NCBI GenBank assembly: GCA_963799845.1
Contig: CAWCYI010000004.1
Span: forward strand, 928,001-992,000
Direction of reading: 5' to 3'
DNA: 64,000 bases
Origin: an uncultured Nitrososphaerota archaeon
GTDB taxonomy: Archaea > Thermoproteota > Nitrososphaeria > Nitrososphaerales > CADDZS01
This document shows, one piece after another, positions 465-63,998 of the stretch. The first letter of the stretch is position 1; each line of letters starts with the position of its first letter. The notes under the pieces are model-generated. The model saw nothing but the letters and a program-made list of their open reading frames with translations, made no database searches and had not been told where the DNA came from. Both the position numbers and the translations under genes were made by a program.

Positions 465-494
465 TTGCGAGAGAAGTACAGCTCACCTCATGGA

Positions 495-563
495 TTTACA
501 AGTAAATTGGGGTTCAAATCCCACATTCCGCTCATGAGAATATCACAAGGTGAAATCTAGTAG
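495..563 (+). repeat. Repeat family 1, copy A (palindrome plus tRNA-3'-like core; right palindrome degenerate)
   Basis: TTTACAAGTAAA-TTGGGGTTCAAATCCCACATTCCGC...CTAGTAG; aligns with 2431, 5580 and 6583. Confidence 0.85.
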
Positions 564-3592: not shown

Positions 3593-5570
3593 TCAGTAGA
3601 CTCCAATCTTTTTCATTATTTCTGCAAATTTCTCGTTAGTTTGTTTGAGCCTGTCAAAAACAGGGAAATGTCCGAAGAGGATCATGCTCAGCTTCCCTAT
3701 CTCTATACGCTTTTTCAAAGAATTCGACGGCTCTTTCATCTTCTTGGAGACCCAAGTATACCAGGCCAATATCAAATGCACCCGACCTCCCGATTCTATC
3801 TCCCTTTGTAATTTCGTCGATAATTTCTGCCGCTTCCTTTTTTCTCTGAGAGACAGCTAAGACGTATCCGAGATAACTCAAACAGTATGAGAGTCGATCG
3901 GTGAGCTCAACTGCCTTGTTGGTCTCCCTTAGTGCGTCATCAAACTTTCCCTTCTCTACGAAAATTAGTCCCTTGAAAAGTCTCGGATAGATTCCTCGGG
4001 GATCCAGATCGAGCGACTCGTTGAATAAATTTAGGGCATTATAGTACCTTCTAGTATTGTAGAGCGTCTTCCCAATGTGCCATTTCAGGAACGCCCAGAG
4101 CGGGTCCAGCTCAAGCGCCCGACTGTTTTCCCGCTCTGCCTCCGCAGCTCTGTTGGACAATCCAAAAGTGTCCCCCAGCCATAAATGCGGAGTAGAATAG
4201 CTTGAATTAAGTTCAATGGCCCGCTTGAATTCTCTTTCAGCTGTAGGAATATCATAATCTGATTGTAGGGAAACTATTCCCAGTGAGCAGTGCGCCTCTG
4301 CGAGCTCCGGGTCTGCATCAATGGCGAGTTTTGCATAGTGTTTTGCTTTCGCGAAACCTTCCTTTTCGGTTATTTCCTCCCCCGCCATGTACGTGTAACA
4401 TTCGGAAATTCCGGATAAGGCCAGACCGTAATTAGGTTCCAATACGAGAGCCTTCTCGAAGCATTCAATAGCTCTGAAGAAACGCTCTCCCATCTCCATA
4501 GTCCGCATGAAGTATCTTCCCTTGAGGAACAAATTGTACGCCTCCGCATTCCTGGATGATTCTTTCTCGATTCTTGCTCTGGCACTCGGAAAAAATGTCG
4601 ATTGTAAAGTCGAACTAACTGTTTCTGCGATCTCTGTTTGAATTGCAAAAACCTTCTCCAATTTCCTATCGAACTTTTTTGACCATACGTGCCTGTCCTC
4701 AGCTGTATCGATGAGCTGCACGGTAATGCGCAGATCGTCTCCTGCCTTCCGGACACTTCCTTCGAGGATCAATCCGGCGTCGAGTTCTTTCGAAATCTCT
4801 TTTACCTGGACGACTGCATTATTCTTGTAACGCATTATAGAAGTGCGGGAAATTACGTCGAGACCTTGAACTTCGGACAGAGTCGTGATGAGTTCTTCCG
4901 TCAATCCATCTGCAAGGTATTCATCTCGTGGATCTGGGCTTATGTTTGAAAAAGGCAGTACTGCAATTCGGCGATCATTCGAATTTTCGCGAGTCTTTTC
5001 CCTTACGACGCCTGCTTCCCAAGGCATTTCGACCGAGTACAATTCCGTGGGAAATTCAACGTTCTTCAGTGACTGCTTTCCGAGCAGTCTCAGAGGCTGG
5101 TCTATTTTGTTGTGCACCTGGTCGAACACCTGCCGGGAAATTGCGACTCTTTCGGGAGGTGATAGCTGCTGAATTCTTGATGCAATGTTCACTGCATCGC
5201 CGAAAACGTCATTGTCTTGATGTATGACATCGCCCAGATGAATGCCAATCCGAAGTGTGGTCTTCCACTCCTCTCTTGAGGAGAAGTTGTAGTCGTGAAG
5301 AAATTCTTGGATCTTAATCGCGCACTTGACGGCATTCAGGGCGCTATCAAATTCCACGAGAAAGGAGTCTCCAATTGTTTTCACCTCACGTCCTCGATTT
5401 TTCGGAAAAAATGGACGGAGAAGATGAAAGTGCCTTTGAAGAACCGCCATCGCCAGTGACTCATTGGCTTGAGTAAGAGCAGTATAGCCGACCATGTCCG
5501 TGAACATTATCGCCGCGAGGCGGCGCTCATCCAACGACAAAAAGTTCAGACTACTCCGGTTAGTGGACAT
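3593..5570 (-). CDS. Class III adenylate cyclase + TolB-like + TPR protein (frameshift near 3690)
   Basis: RRLAAIMFTDMVGYT, KTIGD, DVFGDAVNIASR, IAVLPFSNIS, EGSVRK and TPR repeats; C-terminus (..EKFAEIMKKIGVY) is in another frame. Confidence 0.9.
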
Positions 5571-5579
5571 TTGTATTAT

Positions 5580-5636
5580 TTTACTAGCAAATTCGTGCTC
5601 AAATCCCATATCTCACATTCGGGATTTACTAGTAAA
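5580..5636 (+). repeat. Repeat family 1, copy C (short, 57 bp)
   Basis: TTTACTAGCAAATTCGTGCTCAAATCCCATATCTCAC..GGGATTTACTAGTAAA. Confidence 0.85.
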
Positions 5637-6362: not shown

Positions 6363-6582
6363 TTTTTGGTCTGGTTTCTTTTTAACGAGTCTGACGTGCT
6401 AGGATGCGATGATTGCACCGTCTTTCATAATAAGAATTTGAAGTCTCCTATTTGAAAATTCAATTGTTGTACGAAGGGTAGTTTTTCCCTTCTAAAGAGC
6501 ATCAGAAGTCTTAATCTCTGAGTTTCTCGACCTTCGATTTTAATTCGGAAAGATTCAAAGGTTTCGAATTCAACGATCATTT

Positions 6583-6655
6583 TTTACTAGTAAATTGTGG
6601 TTCAAATCCCACATCCCGCTGTTGGATTATCCTTCCTTGGGATTTTACTAGTAAT
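6583..6655 (+). repeat. Repeat family 1, copy D
   Basis: TTTACTAGTAAATTGTGGTTCAAATCCCACATCCCGC...TGGGATTTTACTAGTAAT. Confidence 0.9.
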
Positions 6656-6882
6656 TACGTGTCCGAATCCCGTTTCTGATTCGAATTCGGAATGTTCTCC
6701 AACGGGACTCGCACCTGTATTCGGATAAAATTCTTGCAGGCAGAAGACCGTGAGCTCCCGATTACGGAGCTAGATTGAGAGGATACAGCTACTGTCCTTA
6801 AAAAGACCCCAATGGGGTCGTAAGCCAGTGAATTATCATAACCACAAAACAATCTATCATAAAGAAAAAATCGATAGGTTAC

Positions 6883-12532: not shown

Positions 12533-12783
12533 GTTTTTGAAATTACCAAGTTGATTACCTCTAGGATCGATTATGTAACGTTTCAGGTATAGATAGCGTC
12601 AGAGGACCTTTCGTAGGGCAAGAATATTTCTTTGGAAACCCGTTATTCTCTTTGCAACTGACCGAAATTCGCCCTGTCTTCGAATTTTTGCTCTGACTAT
12701 CTCTCAGTAGTCTTCAAATTGTATGGAATCCAAGTTTGTTTGCGGTCAAGTTGTTGTCTCAGGAGCCCCTCTGTTGGAATCTC

Positions 12784-12830
12784 GGCTCAGCATCTAGGTG
12801 GAAAAGTCGATTCTACTGCGAGTTGCTCTA
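12784..12830 (+). repeat. Repeat family 2, copy 1
   Basis: GGCTCAGCATCTAGGTGGAAAAGTCGATTCTACTGCGAGTTGCTCTA. Confidence 0.9.
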
Positions 12831-12924
12831 AGCGGATTTCCTCATTTCTAGCCAAAAACAAGGTCAAATGAAGCAAGCAGCTATATAGAGAAGTTTCCTC
12901 TTTTTCAAAGCTCTTGCAAACTTA

Positions 12925-13386
12925 ATGCTTGAGAAAAATGTGTCTGAAGCGAAAAGCCCTAGGAAGACTCTCGAAATCGAAGCGGCGAGCTTCCTCCTTG
13001 GTGTCGCTGGTCTGTTTTTCCTGCTTGAGGGCATGATACATTACGCTGACTTTTTCATCACAGCACATGAAGGGAATAATTCCCTAGTTCCGGTGTCTTT
13101 GATACTTGGGAGCATCGCGATTGGGCTATTGTATTTTCTTCTTGCGTGTTTGTGTTTGCAGAACCAAGGAAATGCGTGGTTCTTCGGTTTTGCAGCAGTT
13201 TTTGCTGGACTGCTTTCAATATCCTACTTCATAATCGAGATTGTTGAGTCCCTTGGGCCGAAGTTTTATTTTTTTGGGTCTTTCAATTATGTTCAATTCA
13301 TTACCGGATACGGATCTGTTACGATTCTTGCAGAGCTATTAATCGTATTTTTCTCTTACAGAGTCTTGAAGACACTTTCGACTTAG
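12925..13386 (+). CDS. Hypothetical 4-TM membrane protein
   Basis: ATG start and four hydrophobic segments; lies between two family-2 repeats. Confidence 0.75.
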   Translation: MLEKNVSEAKSPRKTLEIEAASFLLGVAGLFFLLEGMIHYADFFITAHEGNNSLVPVSLILGSIAIGLLYFLLACLCLQNQGNAWFFGFAAVFAGLLSISYFIIEIVESLGPKFYFFGSFNYVQFITGYGSVTILAELLIVFFSYRVLKTLST

Positions 13387-13403
13387 TTAGAGAAGGAAAA
13401 GCC

Positions 13404-13457
13404 CTCAGCATCGCGAAAGAAAAGTCGATTCTACTGCGAGTTGTTCTGGAGAGATAA
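13404..13457 (+). repeat. Repeat family 2, copy 2
   Basis: CTCAGCATCGCGAAAGAAAAGTCGATTCTACTGCGAGTTGTTCTGGAGAGATAA. Confidence 0.9.
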
Positions 13458-13574
13458 AACGCTGTTCGTACCCTTACGATTCCGCCGACCCCTTGGTAAT
13501 TCGAAAGTTCAATCCTCTGTAGTTCACGCACTAGAGCAATTGCTTGCCAAATCCAGAACTTCACGTATTACAAT

Positions 13575-13958
13575 CTATTCGACCATTTTCCAATATGAAT
13601 CCTTTCGGACTATCTTGCCGTTTCTGAATTCGAAGAGATCACAGCCTCTTACGGCTACGTGCTCCCCAGACTTCTTCGTGCCTGTAAGCAACCATTCAGA
13701 GGCACCCCTGTCCCCACATACCCAATGTGTATCTTCGCCGTAGTGCACATCAGGGATGCCCGCAAAGCGGGTGGCAAGGCCCTCCCTGACCTTTGCCTTC
13801 CCCACAAATCTTGTTCCCCACGGTTCGGTTCCGCGTGGAAGGTCGAATGTGCAGTCATCTACGAAGAATTCCATGATATCGTCCAAGTCGTGTCGATTGA
13901 AAGCATCTAGAAACTTCCTAAGAACATCGATTTGATCAACTTCCTTTTTTTCTGCCAT
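13575..13958 (-). CDS. NTF2/SnoaL-like domain protein
   Basis: DAFNRHDLD, RFAGIPDV and GCDLFEFRNGKIVRKDSYW. Confidence 0.92.
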   Translation of the reverse strand: MAEKKEVDQIDVLRKFLDAFNRHDLDDIMEFFVDDCTFDLPRGTEPWGTRFVGKAKVREGLATRFAGIPDVHYGEDTHWVCGDRGASEWLLTGTKKSGEHVAVRGCDLFEFRNGKIVRKDSYWKMVE

Positions 13959-14157
13959 ATCGGGATAAACTTTGGCAAAGAGGTGAGATAAAGAATTCGC
14001 GCGGGGTCACCAATGTCCGACTTAGGTCAATGGGAAGCTATCAGTTAAGTCCCATGCTGCGATCTTGTTTAGCCGGACACGATGGGACTATCCCCGCAAG
14101 ACATACCCTCACAGCATGCTCTAAATCCGTTCTTTTTCTTTTAACTAATGAAAGTCT

Positions 14158-14204
14158 GGCTCAGCAACGCGATGGAAAAGTCGATTCTACTGCGAGTTGC
14201 TCTA
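14158..14204 (+). repeat. Repeat family 2, copy 3
   Basis: 32 nt identical to copy 1 (TGGAAAAGTCGATTCTACTGCGAGTTGCTCTA). Confidence 0.9.
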
Positions 14205-14276
14205 TTGGATCGTTCTTCCAAACTTTCTTTTGTTATAATTAATAGTAATCGGAGTCCGATGCCATTTTCTTACTTT

Positions 14277-14837
14277 TCAATCGTTCTTCTTGTCGGACTG
14301 ATACCGAAGCAGCGTGACTCCCGATTCAAACATCTTGGCTTCTATGAGTTTCAGGTTCATTACACTTGTTCCGCGTTTGAAAAGATGCTTCCCCTTCCCA
14401 AGAACTAGAGGATACACCCACAGATTATAATGATCGATGAGATTTTGTTGCGCCAAGCTATTCACCAGCTCGCAACTTCCGAAAATCAAGATGTTACCCC
14501 GAACTTGTTCTTCCTTCAATTTGGATACTTCCTTCGTGACGTTTTCCTTGATTAGCGTTGAATTATTCCATTTAGCTTCTTTCAGTGTGGTTGAGACGAC
14601 GTATTTCGGTAGGCTGTTCATTCTATCGGCATATCCTGTCGGATCCTTTGGCATCGAAGGCCACGCAGCGGCAAAACCTTCGTAAGTTGCTCGTCCGAAT
14701 AGAAGAGCATCGCTCGTGAATAACTCATCGACTTTGACCTTCAGGTAGTCTTCGGTTGGTTGGAATTGGAATGCCCACTGGGGATCCTCCATGACACTGT
14801 CCAATGTCAGGAATTCTGAAACAATTATTTTTCTCAT
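14277..14837 (-). CDS. Dihydrofolate reductase family (RibD C-terminal-like) protein
   Basis: MRKIIVSEFLTLD, LFGRATY, PKYVVSTTL and YPLVLGKG. Confidence 0.92.
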   Translation of the reverse strand: MRKIIVSEFLTLDSVMEDPQWAFQFQPTEDYLKVKVDELFTSDALLFGRATYEGFAAAWPSMPKDPTGYADRMNSLPKYVVSTTLKEAKWNNSTLIKENVTKEVSKLKEEQVRGNILIFGSCELVNSLAQQNLIDHYNLWVYPLVLGKGKHLFKRGTSVMNLKLIEAKMFESGVTLLRYQSDKKND

Positions 14838-14956
14838 GTTTGCTTTCTCGGTTTGGTGAACTATCGGCCAACTCTTCATAAGTCTTGGTTTGCATGAATT
14901 TCTAAGTAACCGACTTTTGAAATCAAGAAATTCCATTTCAAATTACCGAAGACTTG

Positions 14957-14988
14957 TTCAAGCTATCCAATGATATTGGAGGGTAGCC
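14957..14988 (+). repeat. Repeat family 3 hairpin, copy 1
   Basis: TCAAGCTATCCAATGATATTGGAGGGTAGCC; similar to 23363-23393. Confidence 0.55.
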
Positions 14989-15460
14989 CTGTATGAAGTA
15001 GCTTCACGGATTGCTCTAAATTTGTTCCTAGTGACGGACCCCCTCATCACTAGCATAGCGGGAACCATTATCGGTAAGACTAAAGCCAGTCCAAGGAAAA
15101 CACTTGAGTGGCCTGCGAGCTACTAACAGTGAAAGTAGAAGGGACCGTTTGCCGTTGTTAAACTAACCTTGCAGGGGCAGGCTTAAAGCTGTCAGGGAAG
15201 AACAAGAGATTGATTCCATTACCTTGGTTAGGGTTTTTCTGTCAACAATTTTCTCCAGTTTTGGAAAAAATGGTTGATGAAAAGCAAAGGCATTATTTTT
15301 TGAAAAATATCTTGACCTCATGCTTTAAGAATCAGGACTACACATTGCTCTCTTTGCTGTCTTGTTAGATCCGACGCAAACTGAAATCGATTTGGGAAGC
15401 ATGATTTGTTTCCGTTCTATCGAAAAATCTGATCAAGCCTTCGGCAGTTAGAAAAAAAGT

Positions 15461-17083: not shown

Positions 17084-18211
17084 TAACCTGGCCGACATAA
17101 GTTCATAGACACCTGTTGGTCAGAAGGAATTTCTTCATGTCAAGATGCGAGCAAAACCTTCGCGTTCGATAGTATTCTGCCAGGATTGATTTCAGTTCTT
17201 TCAATGACGTCGGAAAGGTTGGAAGCCTTGAGAGATCCTTCTCACCCTCGCGCCAACACTCCTCCATCATGTTGAACTCTGGCGAAGCTGTCGGGATCCA
17301 TCTGACTCTGAGAGTCTTCCTGTTCTTACCCAAATAATCAGTTACGATCCTGGTTTTGTGGTGTTGCCTTGCTTTGTCAAGGAAGAGATAGAGTGATCCA
17401 AACTTCCTGTGCACCTTCTTCAGGTAGTCGAGGAATGTCTCGCCATTGAATTTCTCGTACTGCCTGAAGATTTGTGTCCCGTCCAGGCTGATCGCTCCAA
17501 ACACCACGGTGTTGCCGTGCGAGCCTGACACAATCCGAATCGGTCGAATCCCTTTGACCGCCCACACCCTTTTGGTTTCTATGTTCTGGACGAAGATTGA
17601 TTCGTCTTCGGATGCTACGGTGAAGCCTTCCGGGATATTCCTGAGGAGTCTTGCGGTCCTTTTTTAAATTCGAGCCTCTCTTCGAGGGAAGCCTTGTGAA
17701 GTAACCTCTTGTCAGGGACAATTGCTCTCACTCCCCACTTCTGCATCAACCTGTAGATGTGTCTCTCAGTGTATGCCACGTCTGCTTCCTTGCGGATCAT
17801 CTCCCTGACCTCCTTCACGGTCCAGCCGCATTCGTTCTTCACGACCTTCCTCTTCACCGCAATGAACTTGTTGTGATCGAGCTTCGGAGGTCTCCCGCTC
17901 CTTTCCATCGTCTTGAGTCCTTCTAGCCCATCTTTCTCGAAACGTCTAAGCCACGGTGTCGTCCATGATTTGTGCCGGTGAACTTCCCTTGCTACGTGCG
18001 ACGCCGGGACACCCTCGTACTTGACCTTCAGAACGAGGAATATCCTCTTGCTTACGTTTGCGTCCCTCTCCTCTCTATAAGCCTCTTCAACAATCTCCTT
18101 CGGTGCCTGTAATCGAGACATACAACCTGAGATAGGAAGGGAAGTTGGCCAAAAATGAGAATGTCTAGGTCTGTGGCCCTTTCAGTCTAATAATTTATGT
18201 CGGCCAGGTTA
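17084..18211 (-). mobile_element. IS630-family insertion sequence, apparently complete
   Basis: Perfect 17-bp inverted ends TAACCTGGCCGACATAA / TTATGTCGGCCAGGTTA, including the TA target duplication; two-ORF transposase. Confidence 0.95.
17103..18121 (-). CDS. IS630 transposase (HTH ORF + DDE ORF joined by a -1 frameshift)
   Basis: RSGRPPKL HTH; DES, LFLDKARQH and SPEFNMMEECW DDE motifs; slippery TTTAAAAAAG at about 17659-17668. Confidence 0.92.
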
Positions 18212-21235: not shown

Positions 21236-21483
21236 CCCGAATTCGAATGTTGAGAGAAATTTTTCGCTGAGTAATAGCGGTGATCTTAGAGGGATGATCG
21301 AGAATAGTTGCCATCCTACAATGACCACATTCCTAGCTCGGAGAATTTCGCTAATTCTTGGAAGTATCAATTCACCGTAAAGCTCCGACATTTAAGACTG
21401 CGAGCTCGTGATCAGCTACTAATTATTGTTTAATTGCCTTGTCTTATAGTGATTTTGTTTTAGCAAACCAAAGTCTTGATGAC

Positions 21484-21538
21484 GACTCAGGAGGACCTTG
21501 GAAAATCGATTCCGCGGCTAGTTGCTCTGGAGAGATAA
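21484..21538 (+). repeat. Repeat family 2, copy 4 (diverged)
   Basis: CTCAG..GGAAAATCGATTCCGCGGCTAGTTGCTCTGGAGAGATAA. Confidence 0.75.
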
Positions 21539-21766
21539 TCTGTTGATTCTTCGAAGAGCACAGATCTTGTTTCTTAGTTCGAATGTGATGTGTGTAAATT
21601 AGTATTCGAACTTCTCACACGTGAAAAATATTACAAGGTTTTTCCTTTTCGATTATGTCTAGGAGATTCTTGTTAAAGTCGTTTCTTGTTTGACAAATCC
21701 AAACGCTTGGTGTTTGTACGATTAAAGAAGATCAGACTCTGCCAGACACATTACTCCGCAGCATAA

Positions 21767-31852: not shown

Positions 31853-32414
31853 TTGCTACCGTTAGTTTATTGTGGAACGACGATCTCGGTGATCCAGGGT
31901 GACATTGTGGATCAAGAGACAGATGCAATCGTGAACGCTGCCAGCTCTTCTCTCATGGGCGGCGGGGGTGTTGATGAGGCAATCCACAGAGCAGGAGGTC
32001 CCGAAATCCTCAAGCAGGTGCCTTGCGATCCGCAAGCGGGAATGGCCCGACGGGCTTCCGACCGGGAAGGCAATTATCACTGGTGGGGAAACTTGCGAGC
32101 TGAGTACGTAATCCACACCGTAGGTCCAGTTTGTTGTGGAGGAGCGAAGGGTGAAAAAGAGAACTTCAGCTGCCTGCTACGAAAATTCTCTGCAACTCGC
32201 GGCATCCAAAAATCTAGAGTCGATTTCGTTCCCAGCGATCAGTACTGATGCCTACGGATATCCCATTGATCTAGCATCAATTGTTGCTCTAAATTCGGTT
32301 ATAGAAGGAATAGACAAGATCGGAAATCGTAGATTGAAAGAGATCCGTTTCGTCTTATTCACGGTTGGAGACTATGAATCGTATCTCGGCGCTGCGAAAT
32401 CCAAGTTTCAATGA
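31853..32414 (+). CDS. Macro-domain O-acetyl-ADP-ribose deacetylase (several frameshifts)
   Basis: GDI, DAIVNAA, GGGGVDEAIH, VIHTVGP and SISFPAIST..YGYP. Confidence 0.9.
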
Positions 32415-62499: not shown

Positions 62500-62633
62500 T
62501 TTTGTGCGATGAAACTAGAGCGATCTTAGATTGACTTACAATTAGATTCGGAACGTCTGTCTAGATTAAGCAGGAAATCACGGGTGAGATCCTATATGAT
62601 TGGATCCAAATTATTGCCCTCAGTTCATAGCCC

Positions 62634-62680
62634 GGCTCAGTATCGAAGCAGAAAAATCTATTCTATAGCGAGTTGCTCTG
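62634..62680 (+). repeat. Repeat family 2, copy 5
   Basis: GGCTCAGTATCGAAGCAGAAAAATCTATTCTATAGCGAGTTGCTCTG. Confidence 0.8.
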
Positions 62681-62777
62681 TCGAGCAAAAAAAGCGAGTA
62701 GAAACCATCAGCTGAAAAGCTTCCGACGAAACTCCTAAACGATTTGAAACTTCAATGAGAGCCTTCGTCAAAACGAA

Positions 62778-63998
62778 TCAATCTACATCGGAGAAACCAA
62801 TTTTCTTCAGCAAAGACTGAAACCTTGGATCCGGGCGAAGGTCTTCGAAAGGAAAATCGCTGTTGATCGAGACAATAAAAACTGCATGTTGCGCATAGGC
62901 TCTCTCCAGCCATTCGAGCGCCTTGTCTTTTTCGCCTAGACTCGAGTAAACTCCGGCAATTATCGTTTCGGACACATGGCCTTGTTCCCTCATCCTGAGC
63001 AAATCGGCAAGAATGCCTCTTACCTCATCCATTTTTCCAGCTCTTGCGTAGGCGTATGCAAGTTCGTTTTCAAGATGTAGACCTGAATGTTCTATACTTT
63101 TTCTCATCTCCGTGAGTCCTTCTTCAACCCTTCCCTTCTGAACGTAAGCAACGCCCAAATTAGATTGGGCAAACACCGAATTCGGATCCAATTCCAAGGC
63201 ACTTTTCAGAAGCACTATGGCTTCGTCGGGTCGGCGAGAATAGAGAAAAAGAGTACCTGCAGAGGTGCAGGTCGAAGCGGAGAGAGGATCCAATTCCAAA
63301 GCACGTTTGCATTCTACGATGGCTTCGTCAAATTTTCTGATCTGACAGTACAGATGTCCGAGCTCCAAATGGGCATCCACCAAGCTAGGACTAAGTTCTA
63401 AGGCTCGTCTGAATTCGATTTCCGCACCTCGGAAATCCCACTTATCCCAAAGCAGAACCAGGCCGAGCGGGACATGAGATTCGGGAACGGACGGATCCAA
63501 CTGGATTGCCTTTTCAGCAAATCTTTCGGCCTTGGGGAAGGCTTCGCTCGATGGAAGCAATTCGAAAATACCGATTAAGGCGTAAGATCTTGCGATCTCA
63601 GCGTAGGCTTGAGCATAATAAGGATCCTCTTGAATTGCCTGCTCGCAATAATCTATAGTTTTTTTGGTGGAATCAAGAGTTCCTCGGTGCCGGTAAGATC
63701 TGCCTTTCAAGTAAAGAGTGTAAGCTTCCAAGTTCTGAGTCGGTTTCTTTCCTAATTCTATGCTTTCCTTTGGTAGAATTGTAACCTGAAGTGAATCGGC
63801 GACTTTTTGAGCGATCTCCTTCTGCAGTGAAAACAGGTTCTCGAATTTTCTATCATAATCCTCAGACCACAGATGCTCATCACTTTCCACATCGATTAGC
63901 TGAACAGTAATCCGCAGATCATCAGCGGCCTTCCGGACACTCCCCTCCAATACTGCGCCAACATTCAGTTCCTTCGCAATTTCTGAGAGACTCTTGTT
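62778..63998 (-). CDS. TolB-like + TPR protein, paralogue of 3593..5570 (5' end outside the window)
   Basis: EGSVRKAADDLRITVQLID, TPR repeats and LRPDPRFQSLLKKIG. Confidence 0.9.
   Translation of the reverse strand, partial: NKSLSEIAKELNVGAVLEGSVRKAADDLRITVQLIDVESDEHLWSEDYDRKFENLFSLQKEIAQKVADSLQVTILPKESIELGKKPTQNLEAYTLYLKGRSYRHRGTLDSTKKTIDYCEQAIQEDPYYAQAYAEIARSYALIGIFELLPSSEAFPKAERFAEKAIQLDPSVPESHVPLGLVLLWDKWDFRGAEIEFRRALELSPSLVDAHLELGHLYCQIRKFDEAIVECKRALELDPLSASTCTSAGTLFLYSRRPDEAIVLLKSALELDPNSVFAQSNLGVAYVQKGRVEEGLTEMRKSIEHSGLHLENELAYAYARAGKMDEVRGILADLLRMREQGHVSETIIAGVYSSLGEKDKALEWLERAYAQHAVFIVSINSDFPFEDLRPDPRFQSLLKKIGFSDVD

Follow-up and report, generated by a model that had tools for sequence, protein, structure and literature searches.

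Small gene modules that lie between short double-stranded sites and depend on a recombinase encoded elsewhere are known as pdif modules from Acinetobacter plasmids and as integrative mobile elements exploiting Xer (IMEX); the pdif sites, at which XerC/XerD act, measure 28 bp and alternate in orientation. For archaea, the excerpted text of PMC6563490 gives lengths of 29 to 69 bp for the attachment (att) sites of crenarchaeal elements, treats integrase-less units within arrays as cis-mobilizable elements (CIMEs), and lists tRNA genes, intergenic regions, and the 3′ ends of protein genes as targets of thaumarchaeal elements. Integrons and integron cassette arrays lacking an integrase (clusters of attC sites lacking integron integrases, CALINs) are reported in the excerpted text of PMC9668308 from archaeal metagenome-assembled genomes (MAGs), Thermoproteota included. 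Here we describe a short repeat, termed family 2, that brackets single small genes in a 64,000-nucleotide stretch of DNA from an uncultured Nitrososphaerota archaeon. This stretch, the window, is G000:C4:928001-992000, where G000 is a 4.6-Mb assembly of nine contigs that is 86.7% complete, C-numbers are contigs of G000 unless another genome is named, and L-numbers are metagenome stretches. The family-2 core differs from pdif sites in being 46 to 47 bp long and co-oriented with only weak dyad symmetry, and it differs from integron and CALIN sites in that it comes without IntI, without a single-stranded DNA hairpin, and without GTTRRRY/RYYYAAC, its sequence being conserved rather than its structure. 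Its length does lie within the range of the crenarchaeal att sites in the excerpt of PMC6563490. Judging from sequence, we tentatively read family 2 as an att-like recombination junction for accessory-gene segments, in a site-specific or a homologous form, and give this reading a probability of roughly 40%.

A 29-mer that forms the right part of the core, searched at three or fewer mismatches, has exactly three matches in the window, at 12801-12829 (no mismatch), 13419-13447 (one mismatch), and 14175-14203 (no mismatch), and none in 100 shuffles. The cores of this array are spaced 618 and 756 bp apart, and 32 bases (TGGAAAAGTCG...GCTCTA) are identical in copies 1 and 3. Repeat finding and alignment placed two diverged, co-oriented copies at 21502-21542 and 62630-62690, and (G/C/A)CTCAG stands 17 to 18 nt upstream of the 29-mer in all five window copies. 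An earlier note on this stretch had reported the three cores with their spacings, the 32 shared nucleotides, the near-constant upstream CTCAG, and diverged copies near 21501 and 62651, and all of these were recovered (the last two at about 21502 and 62653 by repeat finding and alignment). The conserved unit is longer than the 29-mer and comprises the 46- to 47-bp core plus recurrent arms. The genome-wide search that had been proposed did find further copies, and family 2 is not confined to the array in the window. Using an nhmmer profile made from 14 copies, we found 24 family-2 places on five contigs of G000, 19 of which (on C4, C6, C7, and C9) are clear copies with E <= 1e-4 and five of which, including one on C1, are weaker.

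Alignment of the copies with their flanks gives the core, GGCTCAG...GATTCTACTGCGAGTTGCTCT (with the shorter end given as GAGTTGCTCT), sharp edges, and the whole repeat unit of about 60 to 100 bp is built around this double-stranded core. The left arm is of type A (CCCCTCTGTTCGTATCTC), type B (CTAATGAAAGTCTGG), or type C (GTGGTAGCCCGG), the last of which is perhaps a diverged A, and the middle of the core occurs in two forms, M1 (GAAAAGTCG) and M2 (GATAATGTTCG). In most copies, the core is followed on its right by GGAGAGATAA, beyond which stands another GAGATAA box (R1), GCGAGTAGAA (R2), or part of a gene (R3); the other copies have unique sequence straight after ...TTGCTCT. Copy 2 has the common right extension, GGAGAGATAAAACG, at 13448-13461 after its core. 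The flanks of copies 1 and 3 are unique rightward from 12830 and 14204, and similarity stops right after GAGTTGCTCT in these two copies as well as in C6:966801, L059, and L079. A tabulation of left arm, middle, and right side for 30 copies from G000, G003, G004, and metagenome contigs contained all four combinations of left with middle, of middle with right, and of left with right. Therefore, the parts reassort, and the pattern is reticulate rather than one of tree-like subfamilies. A short form without the middle 24 nt occurs once, in G004:C215, and none was found in G000. In a contig from run X3, which represents another soil sample and has a loose end before window position 13425, the left side of the copy, GATGCTCGGCTCAGATACTAGTGATAATGT, is unmatched in G000; related populations hold further family-2 variants.

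Two pairs of loci can be compared with and without a bracketed gene. The locus C4:1702132 (reverse strand) begins like copy 1, matching its left arm and its variable part at 96% over 52 nt, and passes directly into the right side of copy 2, whose right extension and R3 arm match this locus at 91% over 142 nt. Relative to it, the window is longer by 618 bp, which correspond to a gene for a protein with four transmembrane segments (4-TM) and a duplicated core. The second pair is formed by contigs C15 and C215 of G004, which share flanks; C215 holds about 580 additional bp with one NTF2-like open reading frame (ORF) between two copies, of which the first is the short form and the second is full. 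Further single-gene units are the SnoaL gene of the window and, in G003/L063, a GNAT acetyltransferase gene that has a full copy on one side and a partial one on the other, beside the end of a gene encoding a tetratricopeptide repeat (TPR) protein. In all, single small genes between two co-oriented copies were found in three genomes. The comparison of empty with filled sites that the earlier note had suggested thus yielded two gene-sized insertions with the core duplicated, but at paralogous sites, since both pairs are paralogous loci or contigs within one MAG and not strains.

If family 2 is an att-like junction, its operation might be pictured as follows. A resident core, often just past the stop codon of a gene of the cyclase/AAA-TPR family described below, would meet a second core carried by a small DNA segment, probably in circular form. 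Exchange between the two cores would insert the segment, which would then be bracketed by co-oriented cores, and the reverse reaction, or exchange among dispersed cores, would delete or truncate genes and reshuffle the arms. The truncated genes found in arms are rearrangement breakpoints. The exchange may be the work of a recombinase that acts in trans, as opposed to mere homologous recombination. A more specific version, which we regard as improbable, is a gene-capture system that uses a non-attC, non-tRNA double-stranded core of 46 to 47 bp, a recombinase encoded elsewhere, and single-gene circles that enter beside members of the sensor-like cyclase/AAA-TPR gene family; its recombinase could be encoded on an unbinned plasmid or virus. 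If true, archaea would have in this system a functional equivalent of the integron that is assembled from other components. A working core would show how non-ammonia-oxidising soil Nitrososphaerales, whose genomes are unusually large, gather and reshuffle small accessory genes, and it would be a second type of site in this genome besides the tRNA-derived repeat discussed below as family 1.

Several observations weigh against an att-like junction, especially in its site-specific form. The main weakness is that the filled and empty pairs are paralogous or come from the same MAG, so ordinary duplication followed by divergence could also account for them. Crossovers fall at several places (the left edge, within the core, and the right edge), a pattern expected less from one fixed cleavage site than from homologous exchange or gene conversion; such ordinary recombination between copies may be all that is needed. 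Twelve of the 19 clear copies are not in arrays, as a 5-kb limit around them takes in no second clear copy. The orientation of genes relative to the repeat is a tendency only: the stop codon of the downstream gene faces the repeat in 13 of the 19 copies (genes around copies are heuristic ORF calls that were checked with Pfam only), and among five scorable metagenome loci three agree and two disagree. The search for an enzyme gave no match to IntI (TIGR02249) or to serine recombinases (PF00239) in G000, three weak matches to Phage_integrase (PF00589) that all lie far from any copy, and no recombinase by Pfam among 54 + 26 flanking ORFs. Three tyrosine-recombinase-like genes of the genome lie at C4:2115564-2116022, at C7:200823-201323, and at C2:34783-36309, which equals C3:5724-7252. 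The earlier suggestion of recombination sites or transposon-end relics stands insofar as the copies do lie at joints between gene-sized segments, but no recombinase or transposase is linked to them and no terminal inverted repeats or target duplications that would mark a transposon end were found. A string of ORFs of 178, 105, 109, and 47 aa (C4:1119500-1121142, L029) lies on one strand and reads away from the copy at C4:1121064, and it may be a decayed mobile-element gene. The proposal that these ORFs are integrase fragments was rejected: Pfam gave nothing for them at E <= 5, a search of 101 genomes turned up no relatives, and the only leads were weak winged helix-turn-helix ones (Atlas, 0.87).

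Compared with CIMEs and tandem accretion as presented in the excerpt of PMC6563490, family 2 shares a direct-repeat core of tens of bp that brackets DNA, rows in one orientation, and units without an integrase, and the host group carries such islands. As with CIMEs, the empty site keeps one core, both pairs here being paralogous. In contrast, family-2 units are single genes of 0.6 to 0.9 kb, and the copies are spread over at least 12 loci rather than stacked at one target. No tRNA gene or protein gene could be identified whose end the core would be, the similarity to a tRNA being weak, and no integrase adjoins any copy. Another comparable system is family 1 of the same genome, which consists of co-oriented repeats (TTTACTAGTAAATTG.GGTTCAAATCCCAC...) at window positions 493-545, 2429-2481, 5578-5630, 6581-6633, and 6642-6671 and has 41 copies in G000 by nhmmer, many of them in co-oriented arrays. 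Like family 2, it occupies the joints of small accessory genes in the same kind of islands, but it has a clear tRNA T-arm motif (GGTTCAAATCCCAC) and a candidate integrase by a tRNA, and family 2 has neither. The two families are independent in sequence only, the respect in which the earlier note had called them so: a family-1-like segment (TTTACTAGTAAA) lies near three copies of family 2, 60 to 110 nt upstream of copies of type A. Arm A also stands alone, with no core, at two places: C4:735339, where a family-1 copy is its neighbour, and C4:927343. These segments and lone arms indicate that families 1 and 2 are physically interleaved. A four-way att relationship between family 2 and the '...TTGCTCTAAAT' family was considered and dropped because no 3L-2R hybrids were found.

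The relatives of the neighbouring SIS-domain gene are MAGs of Nitrososphaerales, the order of the host. Family 2 has a narrow distribution, being restricted to one genus. Among 40 searched genomes of relatives, many of them incomplete and one of which (G001) is unpublished and enters the tallies but no other claim, it occurs in two of the six others of the genus (G003, one match; G004, five matches) and was not found in the 34 of other genera. A scan of one genome per species found the core pattern in the G003 contig only. A metagenome scan returned 32 stretches, of which 25 are chance 18-nt matches and seven are true by profile (L051, L056, L059, L063, L073, L078, and L079); L063 repeats the G003 locus. 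Copies from G000, G003, and G004 are 87 to 92% identical over about 62 nt, and the SIS gene is 66 to 75% identical within the genus. By this measure, family 2 is better conserved across genomes than a housekeeping gene, which reflects either constraint or recent spread. Contigs from four DNA runs of one study, one run perhaps being the source of the assembly, contain no joint that skips a cassette, but they break at cores identical over 28 nt, so that such joints would be undetectable in them. Among the runs listed for the stretch there was none of RNA.

Family 2 is strongly associated with a family of genes for TPR proteins whose N-terminal part is an adenylate cyclase or an AAA-ATPase and whose conserved C-terminus reads ...DPRFQALLKKIGFPD. 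This cyclase/AAA-TPR family has about 30 loci genome-wide, many of them fragmentary, and in the window it is represented at 3654-5609 (-) and 62778-63998 (-). Seven of 19 copies lie within 1.5 kb of such loci, which cover 3.3% of the genome (P = 1.6e-6), and three more copies touch family fragments below that length threshold. A module "D", which follows several copies, corresponds to the coding end for the C-terminus of the TPR family (...DPRFQALLKKIGFPD, followed by the stop) in antisense. Four copies in G000 lie 57 to 151 nt past TPR C-termini, three of the five copies in G004 are placed likewise, and the stop codon of the TPR gene at 62778-63998 lies about 100 nt past copy 5. These data are compatible with a passive or homology-driven relic, that is, a piece of flank that was copied with cyclase/AAA-TPR genes, was left behind on their decay, and recombines through chance homology with no dedicated enzyme or function. 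Two further observations fit this explanation: two copies abut a truncated 5′ AAA-TPR fragment that was duplicated with the repeat as one unit (it recurs at C4:1701954-1702132), and the crossover positions are several. However, the repeat lies within 151 nt of the stop codon in only four of 27 TPR C-terminal matches in G000, it is far better conserved than the coding parts (G000/G004 paralogues share 38 to 40% protein identity), and many copies adjoin unrelated genes. Its position after the stop codon varies, though repeat-free paralogues keep the neighbouring flank, which indicates that the repeat is linked to the family and is not simply an inherited 3′ flank. We regard the relic as a rather unlikely explanation. 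If the att-like reading holds, the link to this fast-evolving family points to a connection between gene capture and families of this kind.

A miniature inverted-repeat transposable element (MITE) offers an account that seems equally unlikely to us. According to this account, a non-autonomous transposon of about 95 nt (arm A, core, and GGAGAGATAA..GAGATAA) inserted near gene ends, and the bracketing pairs arose secondarily by recombination. About 19 to 24 dispersed copies are present in part of one genus and are more conserved than the genomic background. The arrangement A-core-R1 is the commonest (nine of 30 copies), and its ends stay fairly constant across three genomes and the metagenomes. 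Copies stand about 10 to 100 nt from the stop codons of TPR paralogues, a spread to be expected of independent insertions. The repeat also resembles MITEs, repetitive extragenic palindromic (REP) sequences, and bacterial interspersed mosaic elements (BIMEs) in being short, non-coding, multicopy, and intergenic, often between convergent genes and in mosaics with other short repeats. By hand, ATCTCGGCTCAGC and GCTCTGGAGAGAT are inverted-complementary at nine of 13 positions. However, terminal inverted repeats, target duplications, and palindromic hairpins, by which those elements are distinguished, were not found in family 2. Six full copies yielded no end-joining inverted 9-mer at one or fewer mismatches, and when 13 copies were aligned at their ends, no target-site duplication of constant length was apparent; loosely similar CTCAG/TTCAG and CTGTTCGTA strings do stand on both sides of copies. 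The idea of a transposon end put forward in the earlier note finds no support here. No longer element with these ends was found, as BLAST and nhmmer matches in the genome are all short copies, and the reticulate combinations of arms are unlike MITE subfamilies. The terminal repeats of an IS630-family insertion sequence differ from family 2, and the two Y1 transposase genes of G000, which lie within 2.7-kb IS200/IS605-type repeats, have no family-2 match by nhmmer in their flanks. If family 2 proved to be either a decayed flank or a MITE, it would be an ordinary repeat, of use mainly as a marker of variable islands and as a warning for assemblers, since contigs break at it.

The IS630-family element is itself in the window, at 17084-18211, with a helix-turn-helix ORF, a DDE_3 ORF, and 27-nt terminal inverted repeats. 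Its contig depth is about 105 to 112 versus about 6.5 in the flanks, so there are roughly 16 copies, some of which also lie beside the family-2 copies at C4:1494001 and C6:966801.

We also considered a cis-acting, non-mobile sequence, such as an array of protein-binding sites (GAGATAA-like boxes), a 3′-UTR or termination element, or a small unstructured RNA, and judge it to be quite unlikely. The orientation tendency noted above, with 13 of 19 genes beyond the right side presenting their stop codon to the repeat, is in keeping with such a role, as are the two or three GAGATAA-like boxes per unit, spaced about 10 and 36 nt apart, and the high conservation between genomes. However, the distance to the stop codon ranges from 18 to 366 nt and the orientation is inconstant. 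No stable fold was detected either: RNAalifold on 19 copies gave -0.36 and 0 kcal/mol on the two strands, and single-copy DNA folds of four copies, compared with shuffles on both strands, gave z values of -1.2 to +1.4. Rfam had nothing at the gathering threshold for the window; at E <= 10, the region 12600-14400 drew just two matches, both at chance level. The longest T-run in the unit is four. Most of the genus and every other relative searched lack the repeat, which therefore does not serve the host as a general signal. A structured RNA, riboswitch, or hairpin terminator is rejected on the lack of a consensus or significant fold and of an Rfam match.

An integron cassette array without an integrase, with the repeat as attC, is exceedingly improbable. 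The intervals (618 and 756 bp) are of gene size and enclose a single gene each, the cargo (SnoaL/NTF2, GNAT, and a small membrane protein) looks typical of cassettes, and the spacing agrees with the rule of at least two sites less than 4 kb apart in the excerpt of PMC9668308, all of which recalls a CALIN. However, the genome has no IntI, neither strand holds an imperfect-palindrome hairpin, the junction GAG|TTGCTCT offers a GTTGCTC that misfits GTTRRRY with no inverse core GAGCAAC upstream, and 12 of the 19 clear copies are isolated at the 5-kb limit given above. CRISPR is rejected, as it was in the earlier note, on gene-sized spacers and dispersed copies. A REP/BIME origin is rejected because there is no significant fold and because the test for a REP-associated tyrosine transposase (RAYT) system found no copy in the flanks of the Y1 transposase genes. 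Having failed defining tests, the attC, REP/BIME, hairpin-terminator, and classical MITE readings are each out on at least one of them. A protein-coding remnant is likewise rejected, in that one consensus frame is open but the variation is not codon-like and stops occur in most copies; one family-2 copy falls in the read-through tail of a TrmB-like ORF.

The genes between the copies (Table 1) are accessory. The 153-aa ORF, which is the 4-TM gene of the earlier note, is the sole ORF of at least 60 aa with relatives between copies 1 and 2. Because these relatives, in G007 and G011 of a sister genus, share 49 to 53% identity with it, we consider it a real gene; a pseudogene is present in G006. 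Of 151 genomes from the order, four were found to contain the gene, in settings other than this one and without the repeat, and the SIS gene is the only one of 26 tested window proteins that recurs in the SIS loci of relatives. Thus, the synteny in repeat-free relatives that had been named as a possible refutation was not seen. The claim that each interval contains exactly one gene is right for full genes, but the second interval also contains a 25-codon AAA-TPR fragment. No further parts of the gene from which this fragment derives were found within 7 kb.

Table 1. Positions of family-2 copies, associated segments, and genes of the array in the window
Feature	Position	Strand	Description	E value
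Copy 1	12766-12829	+	left arm A at 12766-12783 (CCCCTCTGTTGGAATCTC); 46-nt core at 12784-12829	5.2e-17
Copy 2	13402-13461	+	core at 13402-13447, CCCTCAG...GTTGTTCT	9.6e-17
Copy 3	14141-14203	+	left arm B (CTAATGAAAGTCTGG); core at 14158-14203	2.1e-16
Copy 4 (diverged)	21481-21545	+	six mismatches in 29-mer; common right extension GGAGAGATAA	4.7e-06
Copy 5	62617-62690	+	left arm between types A and C; core; right arm R2	1.3e-14
153-aa hydrophobic protein	12925-13386	+	no Pfam family	
AAA-TPR 5′ fragment, residues 11-35	13472-13546	-	R3 arm of copy 2; tblastn 76% over 25 aa	
SnoaL-like (NTF2-fold) protein, 127 aa	13575-13958	-	Pfam SnoaL_2	1.4e-23
Segment of a further repeat family, D7	14099-14136	+	...GCTCTAAAT...; directly before copy 3	
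RibD_C-domain (dihydrofolate-reductase-like) gene	14277-14936	-	Pfam RibD_C	7.6e-20

The RibD_C gene turns its stop codon toward copy 3 and has a paralogue with 76% DNA identity at C6:1746728-1747267. At its start lies a motif, AAGAAATTCCGTTTCAAATTACCGAAGACTT (14925-14955), which also occurs at C4:2084432, C4:1249381, C4:2085023, C4:522777, and C6:4005 and may be a shared promoter or operator.

An origin of family 2 from a tRNA, a tRNA intron, or a split tRNA is no more than a lead, as alignment scores are not significant and ARAGORN finds no tRNA anywhere in the window. Left arms A and C do resemble the tRNA at C6:181585-181709, with arm A matching its T-arm at 14 to 15 of 15 nt, but these alignments are weak (z of 0.7 to 2.4). 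In G000 as a whole, ARAGORN calls only 35 tRNA genes. Most of them contain insertions that are long or oddly located, and one of the calls, which includes a 1.8-kb 'intron', must be false. The tRNA at C3:7289-7413 has a D-loop insertion of 25 to 28 nt that looks like the family-2 core to the eye, but the alignment score does not bear this out. Directly after this tRNA lies a tyrosine-integrase-like ORF, which is 508 aa long in C2 and split in C3. The end of C2 (29064-36319 of a 36-kb contig with 44% GC) repeats C3:1-7262 at 99% and stops 27 nt before the same tRNA, and this repeated segment is probably an integrated element at that tRNA.

The pairing of a D7 segment with a family-2 copy, seen directly before copy 3, occurs also in G004:C215. 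A repeat with the sequence ATCCAATGATATTGG...TTCACGG.TTGCTCTAAATTTG was observed at window positions 14960-15036 as well as at 14099-14136 and 32267-32304. It has four further copies, at C4:1122205, C4:1244797, C4:1127586, and C1:150573, and it shares TTGCTCT with the right edge of the family-2 core.

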